A DNA stretch of 27,089 nt from an uncultured Candidatus Peribacteria bacterium (GTDB lineage Bacteria; Patescibacteriota; Gracilibacteria; UBA1369; UBA12463). The notes beneath the pieces are model-generated. The model did not search any database. It saw only the letters and a program-made list of their open reading frames with translations, and was not told the DNA's origin. The stretch covers positions 1-27,089 of the forward strand of contig CAYHPV010000002.1 of NCBI GenBank assembly GCA_964358735.1, read 5' to 3'. A program made the position numbers and the translations under genes. Of this stretch, positions 2,197-6,832 are shown in pieces; positions within the stretch are counted from its first letter, which is position 1; every line of letters starts with the position of its first letter.

Positions 2197-2514
2197 TCAA
2201 TCCTTCAGTGCCAAATCGCGGAGATAAGCAGAAATTGAGGTATAGCCTTTCTTAAGAGCCTTTTTCTCAATTTTCTTTTTGTATTCTGAGCCTATTCTAA
2301 AACGCACAATCTCCTCACGCTTTTCATACTCACGCGCATCAAGAATATGATCAGGAAGATACTGAATCAATTCAGGAACATCCTCATTCAAAAAACCTTG
2401 ATCAATTCTTGCAGCTGGACACTCTACATAAGTTTCCATTTCATTCACTTTTTTGAGCGTACAAGGATATTTTTTATTACCGATATTAACATAAAAAGTT
2501 ATGGTTTTTTTCAT
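2197..2514 (-). CDS. Putative antitoxin: atypical N-terminal domain plus C-terminal ribbon-helix-helix
   Basis: C-terminal EIVRFRI..YKKKIEKKALKKGYTSISAYLRDLALK has an RHH pattern; ATGA overlap with hicA. Confidence 0.75.
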   Translation of the reverse strand: MKKTITFYVNIGNKKYPCTLKKVNEMETYVECPAARIDQGFLNEDVPELIQYLPDHILDAREYEKREEIVRFRIGSEYKKKIEKKALKKGYTSISAYLRDLALKD

Positions 2515-2759
2515 GGAAAAATGAGAAGAAATGATTTAATAACATTTGAAGCTTCAACCTTATAATACGTAGCACAGTCATTATTGTGCAAGGGAAGAAT
2601 AATATCTCTCTGAATCTTAGGATGACGAAATTTATTATGACTTCCTTTTCCGTGTGAATGACTAAATCCAAGACCGAGAAGAAGATGAACAATTTCCGAA
2701 TATCGAAGCGTTGCCGGCCTTTCCAGAAATTTTTTCAATAACTTCTTTTTTTGTGACAT
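2511..2759 (-). CDS. hicA: HicA-family mRNA interferase toxin
   Basis: 82 aa basic protein; LGF....GKGSH..F.HP and LPLH motifs of the HicA dsRBD-like fold. Confidence 0.9.
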   Translation of the reverse strand: MSQKKKLLKKFLERPATLRYSEIVHLLLGLGFSHSHGKGSHNKFRHPKIQRDIILPLHNNDCATYYKVEASNVIKSFLLIFP

Positions 2760-2813: not shown

Positions 2814-3632
2814 TCACAAAGGACTTCGAATAAATCCAAGCCCCACCGACGTCACCTGCGTATATCGCTGTGTCGTGCGAATATTTGCATGCCCAAGTAA
2901 CTCTTGAATATATCGGATATCCACGCCATTTTCGAGTAAGTGTGTCGCAAAACTATGTCGCAACGAGTGAAACGTCGCCGCCTTCTTCAATCCCACCCGC
3001 ACCATCGCCCGCTCAAAAATCTTCTGCGCCGTCCGACTCGTCAGCCGCCCTGCGCGCTCACTCATAAACACAAATGTTTCTCCGCCTCTTCCCGCAACCA
3101 AGCTTCGCAACTCATCCCGAATCCTCTCCGGAAAAACTGTCGCCCGATCTTTGCCGCCCTTTCCACCACGCACCCACAGGCGCAAACTCTCAAAATCCAA
3201 ATCCCGAACCCTTAAGCTCACCACCTCACTCACGCGCAATCCCGCCCCATACGCCAACGTAATCATGAGTCGATGCTTCACGTTCACCACACTCGCAATA
3301 ATCCTGCGAATCTCTTCCCTCGACAGCACCACCGGCAGCTTCCGACTCCGCTTCGCAAAGCGAATATCTAATCCCCTTCCGAGCTTCAAAATCCGTCGAT
3401 ACACAAACAACATCGCATTCAAATAGAGATTCACTGTTTGCGACGCACACCCCCTATCCCGTTTCATCAACAAAAATCGCATCACATTTTCCCTCCTCAT
3501 AGCCAAATCCCCACCAACAAACTTCAAATATTCCGCAAAACATCGCACATAACTCGAAACCGTCCGCGGACTATATCCCCTCACCCTCAGCTCATCTCTC
3601 AGCTGCTCAATAATATGTTGCATATCGATCAC
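2814..3632 (-). CDS. Tyrosine recombinase, IntI-like but lacking the integron-specific I2 insertion
   Basis: IntI-like N-terminus (LRVRGYSPRTVSSY, ASQTVNLYLNA); full catalytic set GLRVSE, GKGGKDR, HSLRH, LGH, RYT; only 272 aa. The true start may be the Met at 3623. Confidence 0.9.
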   Translation of the reverse strand: MIDMQHIIEQLRDELRVRGYSPRTVSSYVRCFAEYLKFVGGDLAMRRENVMRFLLMKRDRGCASQTVNLYLNAMLFVYRRILKLGRGLDIRFAKRSRKLPVVLSREEIRRIIASVVNVKHRLMITLAYGAGLRVSEVVSLRVRDLDFESLRLWVRGGKGGKDRATVFPERIRDELRSLVAGRGGETFVFMSERAGRLTSRTAQKIFERAMVRVGLKKAATFHSLRHSFATHLLENGVDIRYIQELLGHANIRTTQRYTQVTSVGLGFIRSPL

Positions 3633-3647
3633 TCTACCACTCCGACC

Positions 3648-3734
3648 TTACCAATTTATAACCAACTCCTAACATTTTTCTTCTATTTTTCTAACAAAAT
3701 CCTGACAAAATCATAACAAAACATCACAAAAAAA
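3648..3734 (+). repeat. 11-bp-phased TAAC-box array upstream of the recombinase
   Basis: TTAC 3648, TAAC 3659, TAAC 3670, (TTCT 3681), TAAC 3692, TGAC 3703, TAAC 3714, TCAC 3724; the last four are followed by AAAA. Confidence 0.65.
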
Positions 3735-3767
3735 TAAGACATAAATATCTAGAATAAGCCAAAAAAC

Positions 3768-3784
3768 TGTGATAGCATCTGGGA
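3768..3784 (+). promoter_or_regulatory. Extended -10 promoter, probably leaderless, for the 136-aa ORF
   Basis: TGa-TAGCAT (-10 at 3773-3778), 6 nt before ATG 3785; -35 weak. Confidence 0.5.
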
Positions 3785-4195
3785 ATGAATATCTATAAAA
3801 CAAAGGCAAGAAAATTATCCGGAACTGACTTTAAAGAAATACATCAAAAGGCGGTTCATATTTATGAAGTGATTCGCAAACGATCAAAACGTCGAACATA
3901 TATTCGATCAATATATTTTGGAAAAAATAAAATCTTTCTAGGGATATTCTGGCAGCATGTCTATGAAAAAAAGAATTACGGCGATCAAATGAGGAGAATG
4001 AAATATTTTCCATGTGCCATAGAGCTCATCCAAAACTCACATTGCAATCCGACAACAAAAGAAAATCCAAACAAAAAATCAGAGTTACTTCATAGATTTT
4101 ACGGCTCTACACCTGAAAATGAGCACTTCATTGTCCAAATCAAAGAAGACAAACGAAGTGGAGAGAAATTCCTTATTTCAATATTTCCAGCATAA
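3785..4195 (+). CDS. 136-aa basic hypothetical protein, possibly a BECR/RelE-like RNase toxin
   Basis: Clean ORF with own promoter; FWQH, RRMKYF and C-terminal FIVQIKE...KFLISIFP resemble the BECR-fold nuclease layout (inference). Confidence 0.75.
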   Translation: MNIYKTKARKLSGTDFKEIHQKAVHIYEVIRKRSKRRTYIRSIYFGKNKIFLGIFWQHVYEKKNYGDQMRRMKYFPCAIELIQNSHCNPTTKENPNKKSELLHRFYGSTPENEHFIVQIKEDKRSGEKFLISIFPA

Positions 4196-4196
4196 A

Positions 4197-4251
4197 CAAA
4201 AAGACTCTCCGCTAACTGTAGTGTATAAACTACGGGCCGAAAGCCTTTTCT
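4197..4251 (-). ncRNA. Putative ~55-nt hairpin sRNA, copy 1
   Basis: AGAAAAGGCUUUCGGCCCGUAGUUUAUACACUACAGUUAGCGGAGAGUCUUUUU; 12-bp terminal stem, inner GUAGU/ACUAC stem, U5 tail; own promoter. Confidence 0.7.
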
Positions 4252-4257
4252 AGCGCA

Positions 4258-4286
4258 AGTATAGCAATATTCATTTAAAAAATCAA
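4258..4286 (-). promoter_or_regulatory. sigma70 promoter of sRNA copy 1
   Basis: TTGATT(4286-4281)-17 nt-TATACT(4263-4258) with TG extension. Confidence 0.75.
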
Positions 4287-4314
4287 TTCTTTGGATTTGT
4301 ATAGGAAAATGGTC

Positions 4315-4370
4315 AGAAAAAGGCCTCCGCTAATGTGTGGTATATAAACCCCGTGCCGAGGACCTTTTCT
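4315..4370 (-). ncRNA. Putative ~56-nt hairpin sRNA, copy 2
   Basis: AGAAAAGGUCCUCGGCACGGGGUUUAUAUACCACACAUUAGCGGAGGCCUUUUUCU; roughly three-quarters identical to copy 1 with compensatory stem changes; offset 119 bp. Confidence 0.7.
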
Positions 4371-4376
4371 AAGGCC

Positions 4377-4405
4377 ATTATGCTCATTTTAAAGCCAATA
4401 TGCAA
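4377..4405 (-). promoter_or_regulatory. sigma70 promoter of sRNA copy 2
   Basis: TTGCAT(4405-4400)-17 nt-CATAAT(4382-4377); same distance to the AGAAAAGG start as in copy 1. Confidence 0.75.
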
Positions 4406-4457
4406 GATATTTCTCAAATCCGACCCAGTATTCAAAGCTAAATTTCGCACATCCATC

Positions 4458-4506
4458 CCGAAACTGCTGTTTATACGAAGTGTTTTCATATAGAATCGAG
4501 TTATGT
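4458..4506 (+). other. Integron-type recombination site (attI-like or minimal attC) ending in R' box GTTATGT
   Basis: AAC(4462-4464)-5 nt-TTTATACGAA/TTCATATAGA stem-5 nt-GTTATGT(4500-4506); downstream sequence is complementary to the R'' at 5846. Confidence 0.5.
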
Positions 4507-4655
4507 GAAATGCATGTTTTACTTTTGGGCTATCGCCCAGCTCTAAAAAAGAATCCAATTTTGTTTTTTTTATCTATTTATATAGGGGGATAAGGTATTT
4601 TCTCCGCTCTGCTACGAAAATAATTTATTTAAATAATTTTTAACCAAAAAATAGT

Positions 4656-4979
4656 ATGAAAATAGGAATCATTATAAGTCAAACCAATCCCGAAATCGTA
4701 TGGAACGCTTTTCGATTAGCAAATTTTTCTCTTACGCAAGGTGATGAGGTTAAAATTTTTCTTGTTGGCGAAGGCGTGGAATATGAGACTGGCAGTTCTG
4801 AAAAATTCAATATTCAAGAGCAGGCGACAGAATTTTTAAAATCGGATAAAGCTGAAATCATGGCATGTGGCACATGTTTGAAGTTGCGCAAACAAGAAGC
4901 GACAAACACATGTCCAATGAGTACCATGAAAGATTTATACGCATTAGTTAAGGAATGTGACAAAATTTTAACTTTTTAA
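4656..4979 (+). CDS. DsrE/DsrF-like family protein
   Basis: WNAFRLA, VKIFLVGEGV, ACGTC, STMKDL..LV.ECDKILTF pattern; 107 aa. Confidence 0.85.
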   Translation: MKIGIIISQTNPEIVWNAFRLANFSLTQGDEVKIFLVGEGVEYETGSSEKFNIQEQATEFLKSDKAEIMACGTCLKLRKQEATNTCPMSTMKDLYALVKECDKILTF

Positions 4980-4988
4980 TCAAAAATT

Positions 4989-5702
4989 ATGAAAAAACTA
5001 CTTTTTCTCACAATTTCTATTTCCGTTCTTGGTCTTATTTCGCCAACAACTTCTTTCGCGCAAGGAATGATGGGCTTTCCAAATGTATCTATTGATAATG
5101 CCACCATACAAAGCCAGCAACAGGAAGAACAAGAAGGTAAAAACTTTTTGGATAACTTAACGAACAAAACAGTTGCTTGTTCGCAACTCAATGATTCGGA
5201 TTTTGAAAAAATCGGCGAATATTTTATGGGTCAATCCATTGGAGACACAACAAGGCATATTGCCATGAATGAGATGATGAAAAGAATGATGGGCGAAAAA
5301 GGCGAAGAACAAGCGCACGCGGTAATGGGCAAGCGATTGAGCGGTTGCGATACTTCCGCCGCATTTCCATCGCAAGACGCTGGCTTTTTTCCAATGCTAA
5401 ATATGATGACGGGAGGGTGGTCGTCTCCCTCAAAATTTAATCAAACTAACAATAATCCTATGATGTGGAATTTTGGCAATAATCCGATGGGGTGGGGTTT
5501 CGGCGCTTTCGGTTGGATTTTTATGATCCTAGTGTGGGCTGTAATTATCGCTGGCATTTTTGCGCTTATCAAATGGCTTGCAGCACAATCTCACAACGCA
5601 CATGGTCACGAAAAATCCCCGCTTGAAATCCTAAAAGAACGCTACGCTAAAGGCGAGATTGATAAAAAAGAATTCGAAGAAAGAAAAAAAGATTTGAGCT
5701 AG
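4989..5702 (+). CDS. Exported/membrane Met-Gly-rich protein with C-terminal SHOCT domain
   Basis: Signal peptide (..SFAQ), Met-rich segments, one TM helix, C-terminal PLEILKERYAKGEIDKKEFEERKKDL. Confidence 0.85.
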   Translation: MKKLLFLTISISVLGLISPTTSFAQGMMGFPNVSIDNATIQSQQQEEQEGKNFLDNLTNKTVACSQLNDSDFEKIGEYFMGQSIGDTTRHIAMNEMMKRMMGEKGEEQAHAVMGKRLSGCDTSAAFPSQDAGFFPMLNMMTGGWSSPSKFNQTNNNPMMWNFGNNPMGWGFGAFGWIFMILVWAVIIAGIFALIKWLAAQSHNAHGHEKSPLEILKERYAKGEIDKKEFEERKKDLS

Positions 5703-5722: not shown

Positions 5723-5773
5723 GTTTTTGATTTTGGGCATTCACCCCTAACCCCTCTGCCCAAAATCAAAAAC
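5723..5773. repeat. 17-bp perfect inverted repeat (hairpin / bidirectional terminator-like) with C-rich loop
   Basis: GTTTTTGATTTTGGGCA - TTCACCCCTAACCCCTC - TGCCCAAAATCAAAAAC. Confidence 0.75.
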
Positions 5774-5804
5774 GAAAAAACAAAATTAGATTATTTTTTA
5801 GAGC

Positions 5805-5826
5805 AATCCCGATTGCTATCGGGATT
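5805..5826. repeat. Short palindromic hairpin AATCCCGA-TTGCTA-TCGGGATT
   Basis: 8-bp perfect stem with 6-nt loop. Confidence 0.65.
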
Positions 5827-5878
5827 AAAGAAAAACATGCACATCACATAACTAGCTATATCCACGTCAATGCAATTT

Positions 5879-6832
5879 TCATGATAATTGATTAGTAAAA
5901 GGTGTGCCCCGCTTCCATACGGCAAAAACAACATGTACCATCTTGTGCATCACGGCACAAAGAGCGACACGATAAGGTTTCCCCTCGGATCGCTTTTTTG
6001 TGAAAAACACTCTAAAAATATTGTCGTGTAAAACGGCGACAGAAGACGCATTGAAAAAACGAGTGCGCAAAATCTTGCTGCCACGCTTGGTAATATACCC
6101 TTTTCCGTGAATGCTTGTTCCACTCTCATACACACGGGAATCAAGGCCGACATAAGCGGTTAATCGTTTTGCGTCAGGGAAACGGGCAATATCTCCAATT
6201 TCCGCGACGCAGGTCGCAGCGGTTTGAGGTCCAACGCCAGGGATAGATTGCAGCAACTTCTGCAAATCAGGATTAAATTTTCTGATTTTTCTATCCAGTA
6301 AAAGAATTTTTTCATCTAGAAACTCCACAAGATCCTTGTTCACTTCCGAAATGTCATTTGCAAGATAACTTTCACGCAGACAAACTTCCTCCTGTCTCAA
6401 TTTGGCTTGTACTCTCAGCATTGAAAACTTTGATCTCTGACGCACCAAAGTTTTAAGAGTAAGGATGTTGGAAGTATCACGAAAAGGATGCCCGGCGCCG
6501 TTAATCAAACAAATACGAATCAGCTTGGCATCATGAATATCTGTTTTGACACTGCGAACAGTCGATTTGCTTTGCCCCCGTGTAATTAAAGGATTAATTA
6601 CGTTGACGGTATAACCGGCCTTTGTAGCCAGAAAAGAAAGTTGAAGGTGATATGAGCCTGTTGATTCCAGACCAATGAGAGTCTTCTCGTTTGAAAACTT
6701 GTGAGCACTCAAATAATGAAGGAATTGAGAGATTCCAAGGCCGGAATTGTCAAATTTCACGATACCTCCATGCTCGTCAAAACAGGCATGAAAATCACGT
6801 TTGGAAACATCTATACCGATGTATTTGTTCAT
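5879..6832 (-). CDS. IS110 DEDD recombinase/transposase, apparently intact
   Basis: IGIDVSK, GLESTGSY, KTDIHDA (D-E-D-D); SIPGVG; GLDSRVYESG (catalytic Ser); KRGSKILR; AVMHKM. Confidence 0.95.
   Translation of the reverse strand: MNKYIGIDVSKRDFHACFDEHGGIVKFDNSGLGISQFLHYLSAHKFSNEKTLIGLESTGSYHLQLSFLATKAGYTVNVINPLITRGQSKSTVRSVKTDIHDAKLIRICLINGAGHPFRDTSNILTLKTLVRQRSKFSMLRVQAKLRQEEVCLRESYLANDISEVNKDLVEFLDEKILLLDRKIRKFNPDLQKLLQSIPGVGPQTAATCVAEIGDIARFPDAKRLTAYVGLDSRVYESGTSIHGKGYITKRGSKILRTRFFNASSVAVLHDNIFRVFFTKKRSEGKPYRVALCAVMHKMVHVVFAVWKRGTPFTNQLS

Follow-up and report, generated by a model that had tools for sequence, protein, structure and literature searches.

A putative endoribonuclease gene and its convergent hairpin RNA genes in Patescibacteria: a candidate RNA-controlled toxin module

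The Patescibacteria, or candidate phyla radiation (CPR), account for a large share of bacterial diversity, and their small RNAs and conflict systems have been little studied. The locus described here belongs to an uncultured Candidatus Peribacteria bacterium (GCA_964358735.1), whose 1.17-Mb genome (197 contigs, 46.7% G+C, 96% complete) includes contig C2 (CAYHPV010000002.1), the stretch of 27,089 nucleotides that was analysed and that is called the window throughout. It holds a gene for a basic 136-aa protein, here termed a putative toxin, and, on the opposite strand directly behind its stop codon, two small RNA (sRNA) genes, A and B, that converge on it. The core of the locus comprises the following features:

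3785..4195, plus strand: gene for a 136-aa basic protein of pI 9.9 (translation), a putative endoribonuclease (endoRNase) 'toxin' with a predicted alpha/beta BECR-like (LPD3/PBECR-like) fold.
4197..4251, minus strand: sRNA gene A, a hairpin of ~55 nt that starts AGAAAAGG and ends in U5 (folding; covariance model, 68.2 bits, E 2e-15).
4258..4286, minus strand: promoter of sRNA A, TTGATT-17-TATACT, with TG before the -10 (consensus scan; position conserved in the family).
4315..4370, minus strand: sRNA gene B, a diverged ('B-type') hairpin (folding; covariance model, 70.2 bits).
4377..4405, minus strand: promoter of sRNA B, TTGCAT-17-CATAAT (read directly).

Unit A has its -35 hexamer (TTGATT) at 4286-4281, a 17-nt spacer and its -10 hexamer (TATACT) at 4263-4258, followed after 6 nt by a predicted start at A4251; the hairpin runs to ~4203 and gives way to a U5 tract at 4202-4198, which abuts the TAA stop codon of the protein gene (4193-4195). 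Unit B repeats this arrangement, with a -35 hexamer (TTGCAT) at 4405-4400, a 17-nt spacer, a -10 hexamer (CATAAT) at 4382-4377, a predicted start at A4370 and U5 at 4321-4317. The minimum free energy of RNA A is -20.1 kcal/mol (z = -4.5) and that of RNA B -18.9 kcal/mol (z = -3.6), and both RNAs fold unusually well compared with shuffled sequences. The original prediction, made from the letters of the window, had proposed two independently promoted hairpin RNA genes at 4197-4405 on the minus strand, and this has held up, as each carries its own sigma70-type promoter and U-tract at a level far above chance. The prediction had also described the differences between the copies as preserving structure, and all three types of change were found again, namely two in the outer stem (U-A to C-G and U.G to C-G) and one in the inner stem (A-U to G-C). 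The apical stem of RNA B contains one bulged U and one G.A mismatch.

The same prediction had read the two units as a 119-bp direct duplication, which as a recent event had to be given up. Identity between A and B reaches only 67% over the model (74% over 46 nt), and the two are not the product of a recent duplication because each is nearer to RNA genes of other genomes than to its neighbour. A shares 92% identity with an RNA gene of a locus in another genome (L020), and the closest relatives of B are the second RNA copies of loci L095 and L078 (82-83% identity); the -35 hexamer TTGCAT of B recurs in the B-type genes of L078 and L090. Judged from these identities, A and B are best described as two old paralogous RNA genes in tandem. 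RNA B has no protein gene of its own, and behind it lies only a short remnant that reads FFGFV up to a stop codon. An 81-aa minus-strand open reading frame (ORF) at 4313-4558, which lies over RNA B and its promoter, was deemed spurious because it has no family match.

Copies of the RNA were collected with nhmmer and a covariance model, R1, and paralogues of the protein in the window genome with tblastn. The window genome contains 11 paralogues of the 136-aa protein (49-70% identity), and behind every one of the 11 stands a convergent hairpin RNA gene with its own promoter. Fifteen RNA copies are present in all, one of them a contig-end duplicate, and three RNA genes lack an intact protein gene: RNA B of the window, C21:4061-4120 and C115:400-458. 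The orphan on contig C21 (L109:3941-4120) has kept its promoter, hairpin and U5; beside it stand the 14 final codons of a toxin gene, ending in RTGNKYFISVFPIQ and the stop codon; the orphan on contig C115 (L110:400-458) has kept promoter and hairpin, and its U-tract has decayed. The modules of the window genome occur one at a time among housekeeping genes (lexA, obg, dut, ruvA, tgt, aspS and a glycosyltransferase gene), a scatter that resembles that of toxin-antitoxin (TA) loci and, by analogy, suggests the context of a conflict system.

The same linkage holds in other CPR genomes, where 80 foreign loci were fetched: each of their 82 protein copies is followed directly after the stop codon by an R1 match on the opposite strand. 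The gap between stop codon and hairpin is -5 to +24 nt in 78 of these copies, and in the remaining four the open frame enters the hairpin or the match falls just under the alignment cut-off. Two or three tandem RNA genes occur in L020, L078, L084, L090 and L095. Of 121 genomes sampled from across the phylum, six contain a protein gene that is intact or nearly so, and each of the six carries the RNA alongside; a few other genomes have RNA-like matches without the protein. The hosts include Gracilibacteria, Peregrinibacteria, Peribacteria, Magasanikbacteria and Moranbacteria, among others, and the protein family belongs to the Patescibacteria/CPR.

Among the loci examined, the protein gene was thus never met without the RNA and the RNA sometimes without the protein, as one would expect of a harmful protein and a protective RNA. 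The reverse assignment, with the RNA as toxin and the protein as antidote, is contradicted by the intact orphan RNA genes. Strict co-inheritance, together with the co-conservation of RNA motif and protein, would also suit a pair that is no TA system at all, such as an obligate ribonucleoprotein or an enzyme-substrate pair in which a non-toxic protein binds or processes the hairpin for sensing, regulation or defence. An obligate partnership, however, leaves unexplained why RNA genes outlast the protein and the reverse is never seen, and 11 diverged, scattered copies in 1.17 Mb are more in keeping with selfish or defence modules than with a housekeeping ribonucleoprotein. This alternative is considered improbable, and the protein itself, discussed below, bears on it from both sides.

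Selection acts on the minus-strand RNA as such. In an alignment of 101 copies, whose pair counts carry the caveat that it was fitted to R1, pairing is seen in 96.4% of cells, and 14 of the 18 pairs have compensatory (double) changes; none of 500 shuffles reached the observed values, and controls with a slid register pair at 51-68%. Because this first alignment had been fitted to the model, the analysis was repeated on an independent MAFFT alignment of 43 diverse copies with RNAalifold, which returned the identical two helices and compensatory changes in 12 of 15 pairs. The sRNA strand is more stable than its complement in 97 of the 101 copies (means -23.5 vs -16.9 kcal/mol, p = 3e-17), a difference that arises because G.U pairs are frequent, and R1 scores 25-40 bits lower on the mRNA strand than on the sRNA strand. 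In 81 of 99 copies a promoter match of at least 9/12 precedes the first paired base by 6-9 nt, compared with 1.9% of random 50-mers from the same loci, and an extended -10 (TG before the -10) is present in 66 of the 99. The original prediction of a structured sRNA under selection is therefore supported, by strong covariation on the RNA strand and by conserved promoters; its motif, as scored by the covariance model, was present behind every homologue of the protein examined; and its expectation that the RNA belongs to no known Rfam family agrees with a search of the window at gathering score, which only two tRNAs pass, and with a permissive scan of 4150-4450, which gave a single snoRNA match at chance level (E 1.7). 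Mimicry of a tRNA anticodon arm or of rRNA was considered and dropped, as nhmmer and covariance-model searches of the window genome match no tRNA or rRNA gene.

A rival account of the hairpin would be that of a bidirectional terminator and nothing else, with the facing promoter acting by transcriptional interference or through read-through antisense transcripts and the short RNA itself without function. The convergent geometry of promoter and terminator agrees with this account, and so does the symmetry of A-run and U-run, typical of bidirectional terminators, that is kept across the 101 copies and through which the mRNA strand owes a U-tract of its own to the A-run at the 5' end of the sRNA. 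It is nonetheless highly improbable: selection favours the fold of the sRNA strand over that of the mRNA strand in 97 of 101 copies, the sequence of loop and bulge is conserved phylum-wide, and tandem and orphan RNA genes retain promoter and hairpin.

Some positions of the RNA are fixed beyond the need for pairing, which reveals a sequence-specific constraint. The pairs G23-C54 and G26-C51 are invariant (98 of 98 rows each) and C19-G64 nearly so (96 of 98), whereas two pairs that lie between the fixed stem pairs covary freely. At least 90% of copies keep G17, the unpaired G of UCGGC, and the G.G pair that it forms with its partner G switches in concert to A.A or G-C.

On the plus strand, the region upstream of the protein gene and the predicted ends of its mRNA bear on how the RNA could act. 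Three features precede the start codon:

3690..3736, plus strand: four phased YTRACAAAA tracts with a period of 10-11 bp (read directly).
3745..3761, plus strand: degenerate TGGCT-N6-AGCCA palindrome, which lies over the -35 region in the paralogues (upstream alignment).
3770..3778, plus strand: extended -10, TGaTAGCAT, 6 nt before the ATG (read directly and compared with the paralogues).

The tracts are part of an upstream block of ~110 bp, which also contains the TGGCT-N6-AGCCA palindrome and is conserved at 9 of the 11 local paralogues; it recurs in a foreign subclade (L020, L047, L059-61, L077, L078, L090 and L095). The tracts could be UP-element-like bend or protein-binding repeats, and the palindrome, whose left arm has decayed to TATCT in the window copy, is a possible candidate operator. 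In most local paralogues the -10 (TGnTAGYAT) ends 6 nt before the ATG, and the mRNA is therefore predicted to be leaderless. Foreign loci show the same tendency: a -10-like hexamer ends 4-12 nt before the start in 38 of 61 (62%), compared with 23% of random sites, and a Shine-Dalgarno-like 4-mer is found in three of the 61 (5%). At the other end, nothing but the hairpin lies behind the stop codon, and the complement of RNA A is the only terminator-like element 3' of the protein gene. With a hairpin at the stop and no other terminator, the mRNA must either end at the hairpin complement or run into the sRNA promoter; the complement would be followed by CUUUU(U)CU, because the sRNA starts with an A-run. 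Geometry thus predicts that the hairpin is at the same time a bidirectional terminator, and the sRNA fully complementary to the 3' end of the mRNA.

This arrangement lends itself to a purely type-I-like, cis-antisense explanation, in which the sRNA never touches the protein and pairs instead with the 3' terminator hairpin of the toxin mRNA. The proposed route would lead from kissing of the 6-8-nt apical loops to a cut by RNase III, loss of the 3' hairpin and degradation of the mRNA. Complementarity is in fact forced by the geometry, with no terminator between stop codon and hairpin and a gap of -5 to +24 nt; the 5' A-run of the sRNA supplies the U-tract on the mRNA strand; an mRNA without a leader offers no target at its 5' end; the window genome encodes RNase III; and divergence of the stems among paralogues would automatically insulate each pair from the others. 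Precedents exist in the shared bidirectional terminator of par RNAI/RNAII and in the 3' overlaps of RatA/txpA and SR4/bsrG (PMC8167048). A pure antisense RNA, however, has no need for phylum-wide invariance of given base pairs and unpaired bases, and the orphan RNA genes with intact promoters (C21 and window B) have no cognate mRNA. Pairing between two fully closed complementary hairpins would moreover be slow, and loops made only of A and U would give a weak kissing contact. This explanation is accordingly regarded as unlikely, if the strongest of the rivals.

The protein of the module belongs to a family of 294 representative clusters at 50% identity, in which every source name is 'hypothetical protein' and none has a Pfam domain. 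AlphaFold2 (AF2), run with 71 sequences, predicts its structure with high confidence (mean predicted local distance difference test score, pLDDT, 95.9) as an N-terminal helix and beta-hairpin, three helices (53-60, 65-73 and 75-84) and a four-stranded sheet (strands 90-93, 100-108, 114-122 and 128-135). A Foldseek search of predicted viral structures retrieved LPD3-bearing polyvalent proteins of phages (E 5e-4 to 2e-3, TM 0.5-0.6), and the neighbours of the protein in the ESM Atlas are LPD3, PBECR2, MqsR and DUF4258 clusters. A few family members show sub-threshold matches to PBECR2/3, the best among the 71 being a match of a single member to PBECR2 with E 0.0019; no member reaches any Pfam cut-off, and the query protein (P0001) has no Pfam match. 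The LPD3 model of Pfam, run over 301 Patescibacteria genomes, gave one weak match, and none in the window genome. With hhalign, the family aligns to an LPD3-like solo ORF of 136 aa from another genome (E 2e-4, 45% probability), with the His and a C-terminal SVxP motif in register.

That LPD3-like ORF, at L112:1483-1893 in Patescibacteria genome G091, is distantly related to the family. Behind it, at L112:1894-2010, are GC-rich hairpins and a T-run that can be read on the opposite strand, and these may be an analogous RNA partner of different sequence.

Conserved residues across the 71 members include His58 (66 of 71), which lies in helix 53-60 of the AF2 model, and Ser132 (71 of 71), which lies in the last strand, as well as Arg36, Lys49, Lys62 and Arg71. 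PBECR domains have an active site composed of a His that lies within the N-terminal helix plus a C-terminal Thr/Ser, and some of them have been proposed to be inactive RNA binders (PMC5512222). In the predicted structure, the placement of His58 and Ser132 agrees with the active-site layout given there (PMC5512222), and the model, with its helices, four-stranded sheet, helix His and C-terminal Ser, agrees with the core by which BECR domains are recognised (helices, a sheet of four to five strands, a His in the helix and a Ser/Thr near the C-terminus). From these features, rather than from assignment to a family, we infer that the protein is probably a metal-independent endoRNase. Returning to the ribonucleoprotein alternative, it is favoured by the basic character of the protein and by the proposed inactive, RNA-binding PBECR domains (PMC5512222), and also by two longer proteins, P0052 and P0083 (685-736 aa), in which the 136-aa domain is C-terminal to a NACHT/STAND NTPase, the usual place of sensor or ligand-binding domains; the conserved His and Ser, judged from sequence, would instead favour catalysis. 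P0052 also carries an N-terminal HNH nuclease, and the architecture of both proteins resembles that of antiviral STAND proteins, in keeping with a conflict-system role for the domain. An IS200/RAYT-type HUH transposase with flanking hairpins was considered for the 136-aa protein and dropped, as it has no HUH motif and only one conserved His.

The anatomy of the locus, the co-occurrence of its parts, the selected RNA structure, the promoters, the predicted fold and the conserved residues together leave little doubt that protein and sRNA form a real functional module. From the same body of evidence we infer that the RNAs are transcribed, that the protein is an RNase and toxic, and that the RNA neutralises it in the manner set out below. 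That the two parts are a toxin and an RNA antidote is considered probable, and the favoured explanation overall, an RNase toxin held by an RNA antidote through direct binding with antisense pairing as a second layer, is given a probability of roughly 55%. Direct binding is ranked above antisense pairing as the main mode, and the two are not exclusive; taken singly, direct binding as the main mode is put forward tentatively, and antisense pairing in that role is thought unlikely. Direct inhibition is preferred because it explains the bases and pairs that are invariant across the phylum, the concerted change of the non-Watson-Crick pair and the retention of orphan and tandem RNAs.

Under the favoured explanation, the locus would be a self-contained conflict module of two parts, of the toxin-antitoxin or abortive-infection type. 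The plus strand would give rise to a leaderless mRNA and, from it, the small, basic, BECR-like protein that acts as a metal-independent endoRNase, whereas the minus strand would carry at least one strong constitutive promoter, each producing a ~55-nt RNA, the antidote, that consists of one long hairpin and a U-tail. The hairpin at the stop codon would serve as a bidirectional intrinsic terminator, and the mRNA would end in an exact complement of the sRNA. The main way in which the sRNA would neutralise the RNase is direct binding, as a pseudo-substrate or inhibitor, in a type-III-like manner, with recognition through the conserved internal loop (UCGGC / UUAGCGGA, with the conserved G.G pair) and the apical loop UUUAUAYA. 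A second, type-I-like layer may operate at the mRNA, where RNase III would cut a duplex between the sRNA and the 3' end; stripped of its protective 3' hairpin, the mRNA would then decay. If the RNA ceased to be transcribed, for example through shut-off by a phage or because the locus was lost, the RNase would be set free to cut RNA of the cell or of the phage. The most complete form of this proposal, a hybrid type I/III module in which one ~55-nt hairpin terminates the toxin mRNA, is antisense to its 3' end and directly inhibits the BECR-like RNase, remains rather doubtful; since its RNA would have to be made without interruption, such a module could sense a shut-off of transcription and so serve abortive-infection defence.

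Several points weigh against an RNase toxin with an RNA antidote. The similarity behind the nuclease assignment is weak and sub-threshold: searches of Pfam, NCBIfam and PADLOC with the 136-aa protein gave nothing significant (an NCBIfam match to Cmr1, E 0.012, is at chance level), a sequence profile search of the Protein Data Bank (PDB) gave no match even at E up to 10, and Foldseek against the PDB gave none at E <= 0.001, with faint resemblance to CdiA-CT (E 0.14) and HigB (E 0.35). A significant match to curated models or solved structures, which a BECR assignment would call for, is thus missing. The sequencing runs listed as holding the locus are groundwater metagenome DNA only, with no RNA run among them, and the pair counts of the 101-copy alignment come from a fit to the model itself, a concern eased by the independent repeat with MAFFT and RNAalifold. 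Conserved bulges and loops also occur in pure antisense RNAs, and we know of no type III system in which the RNA is convergent and separately promoted. Finally, an RNA whose hairpin is closed and stable and whose 5' end is paired is likely to be long-lived, which is atypical for an antitoxin, though SymR provides a precedent for an antitoxin RNA of unusual stability (PMC8167048).

Among described systems, the closest in layout is par of the Enterococcus faecalis plasmid pAD1 (Fst RNAI/RNAII), in which the toxin and RNA genes also converge on one shared bidirectional intrinsic terminator that forms their region of complementarity and the RNA has its own promoter (PMC8167048); the anatomy of the locus and the symmetry of the 101 copies show the same convergence on a shared terminator, with complementarity predicted from geometry. 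Fst, however, is a membrane peptide of 33 aa, whereas the protein here is predicted to be a soluble, basic alpha/beta protein of 136 aa and is unrelated to Fst. RNAII also pairs with 5' direct repeats (DRa/DRb) and thereby blocks translation, whereas the mRNA here is predicted to be leaderless, with no 5' untranslated region; and here the whole sRNA is the terminator hairpin, its sequence conserved across the phylum. The type I pairs txpA/RatA and bsrG/SR4 of Bacillus subtilis have the 3' overlap that is predicted here from geometry, and RNase III is encoded in the window genome too, but their antitoxin RNAs measure ~180-220 nt, overlap by 75-120 nt and control small hydrophobic peptides, compared with a 55-nt RNA and an RNase-like fold here.

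The typical type I toxin is a hydrophobic or membrane peptide of less than 60 aa, unlike the present protein (136 aa, pI 9.9), with SymE and RalR as accepted exceptions. SymE/SymR and RalR/RalA are a precedent for a soluble, nuclease-type toxin under the control of a small RNA (PMC8167048). They differ in that SymR and RalA act at the 5' end or inside the coding region and in the AbrB-like fold of SymE, and family and structure searches found no relation in sequence or fold between the 136-aa protein and SymE or RalR. The type III systems (ToxIN, AbiQ/AntiQ, CptIN and TenpIN) would be alike under the proposed mechanism, with an endoRNase toxin, direct inhibition by a small RNA, abortive infection and possibly repeated RNA units. 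In type III loci the RNA repeats lie upstream in the same transcript, with a terminator between, and are processed by the toxin (PMC8167048), whereas the RNA genes here are downstream, convergent and each equipped with its own promoter; PADLOC and Pfam gave no match that would place the protein in the ToxN, AbiQ, CptN or TenpN families.

With LPD3 (PF18798), PBECR (PF18810/PF18812) and the BECR toxins (colicin D/E5, RelE/HigB and CdiA-CT) the protein shares the order of helices followed by a four-stranded antiparallel sheet, with PBECR also the helix His and last-strand Ser (PMC5512222), and with LPD3/PBECR the occurrence in conflict-system proteins. It differs from LPD3/PBECR in ~50 extra N-terminal residues and in being a solo chromosomal gene of Patescibacteria with an RNA partner. 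In the literature searched, no RNA partner of LPD3/PBECR domains is described, nothing relevant was found on a CPR small-RNA/toxin system or on BECR toxins with RNA antitoxins, and neither a paper nor an Rfam family describes this protein-RNA pair. The TA-like tie between the sRNA and the convergent putative nuclease, as originally predicted, gains support from the linkage in 11 of 11 local and 82 of 82 foreign cases and from a fold and residues that suit a BECR-type RNase. The predicted difference in layout from type III and classic type I loci also stands, as neither upstream co-transcribed repeats nor a small hydrophobic toxin were met. By analogy, the module would be an RNA-controlled toxin module whose layout matches the terminator of par, but neither the other features of par or type I nor the layout of type III.

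The module of the window has mobile-element and TA-like genes for neighbours: a 272-aa IntI-like recombinase, a HicA gene, a NikA-like gene and an IS110 element. The first of these may be listed as follows:

2814..3632, minus strand: short IntI-like tyrosine recombinase of 272 aa (Pfam Phage_integrase), divergent from the module.

Its top NCBIfam match is the integron integrase TIGR02249 (217.8 bits against a cut-off of 265, split in two stretches), and by sequence it is an IntI-like recombinase without the IntI insert. Homologues adjoin the protein gene in 6 of the 80 foreign loci (L029, L031, L066, L078, L090 and L095), and three of these (L078, L090 and L095) repeat the layout seen here, in which the protein gene is accompanied by a divergent recombinase and by two or three RNA genes. 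This neighbourhood raises the question of whether the hairpin could be a DNA element, an attC-like site, and the ORF and hairpin a cassette moved by the IntI-like recombinase. The adjoining integrase, here and in those six loci, speaks for it. Against it, the hairpin was met solely beside members of this single protein family or what remains of them and never behind other genes, the arms read directly have no RYYYAAC / GTTRRRY core sites, 10 of the 11 local modules stand singly between housekeeping genes with no integrase nearby, and a recombination site would not explain a conserved promoter and U-tract. It is the least probable of the rival explanations. The recombinase is best seen as a recurrent neighbour and not a component of the module, because it is missing from all ten other modules of the window genome.

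Other elements surround the module. A HicA-toxin-like ORF (2511-2759, minus strand) overlaps by 4 bp a sub-threshold NikA-like ORF (2197-2514), and both adjoin the recombinase; the HicA- and NikA-like ORFs (2197-2759, minus strand) add to the mobile-element or TA-type content around the module. On the other side, a DsrE-like gene (4656-4979) and a SHOCT-domain gene (4989-5702) are flanked by two adjacent inverted-repeat pairs at 4499-4569 / 5775-5853, one of 30 nt (93% complementarity) and one of 27 nt (89%). A perfect 17-nt hairpin lies at 5723-5773, and after it comes an IS110-family transposase gene (5879-6832, minus strand); the arrangement looks like a small mobile or invertible cassette. 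Elsewhere in the genome, two of the 11 local modules lie directly 3' of group-II-intron-like reverse transcriptase genes (L110:2368-3402 on contig C115 and L105:2030-2698 on contig C4); both score below the equivalog cut-off, and the copy on contig C4 is truncated.

The RNA described here constitutes a new structured family, with strong covariation and no match in Rfam, and the protein a new family of 294 clusters with a confidently predicted fold, and the rule that links the two held in every case examined. If the protein is indeed a toxin and the RNA its antidote, the architecture would fall outside the current definitions of type I and type III, the RNA would be the first natural inhibitor for LPD3/PBECR-like domains, and the presence of 11 loci for one module in a 1.17-Mb genome would be explained. 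At ~650 bp the module is small and can be tested directly in E. coli. Should the hybrid reading prove true, it would signify a new class of RNA antidote that is widespread in the Patescibacteria, whose immune systems are poorly characterised.

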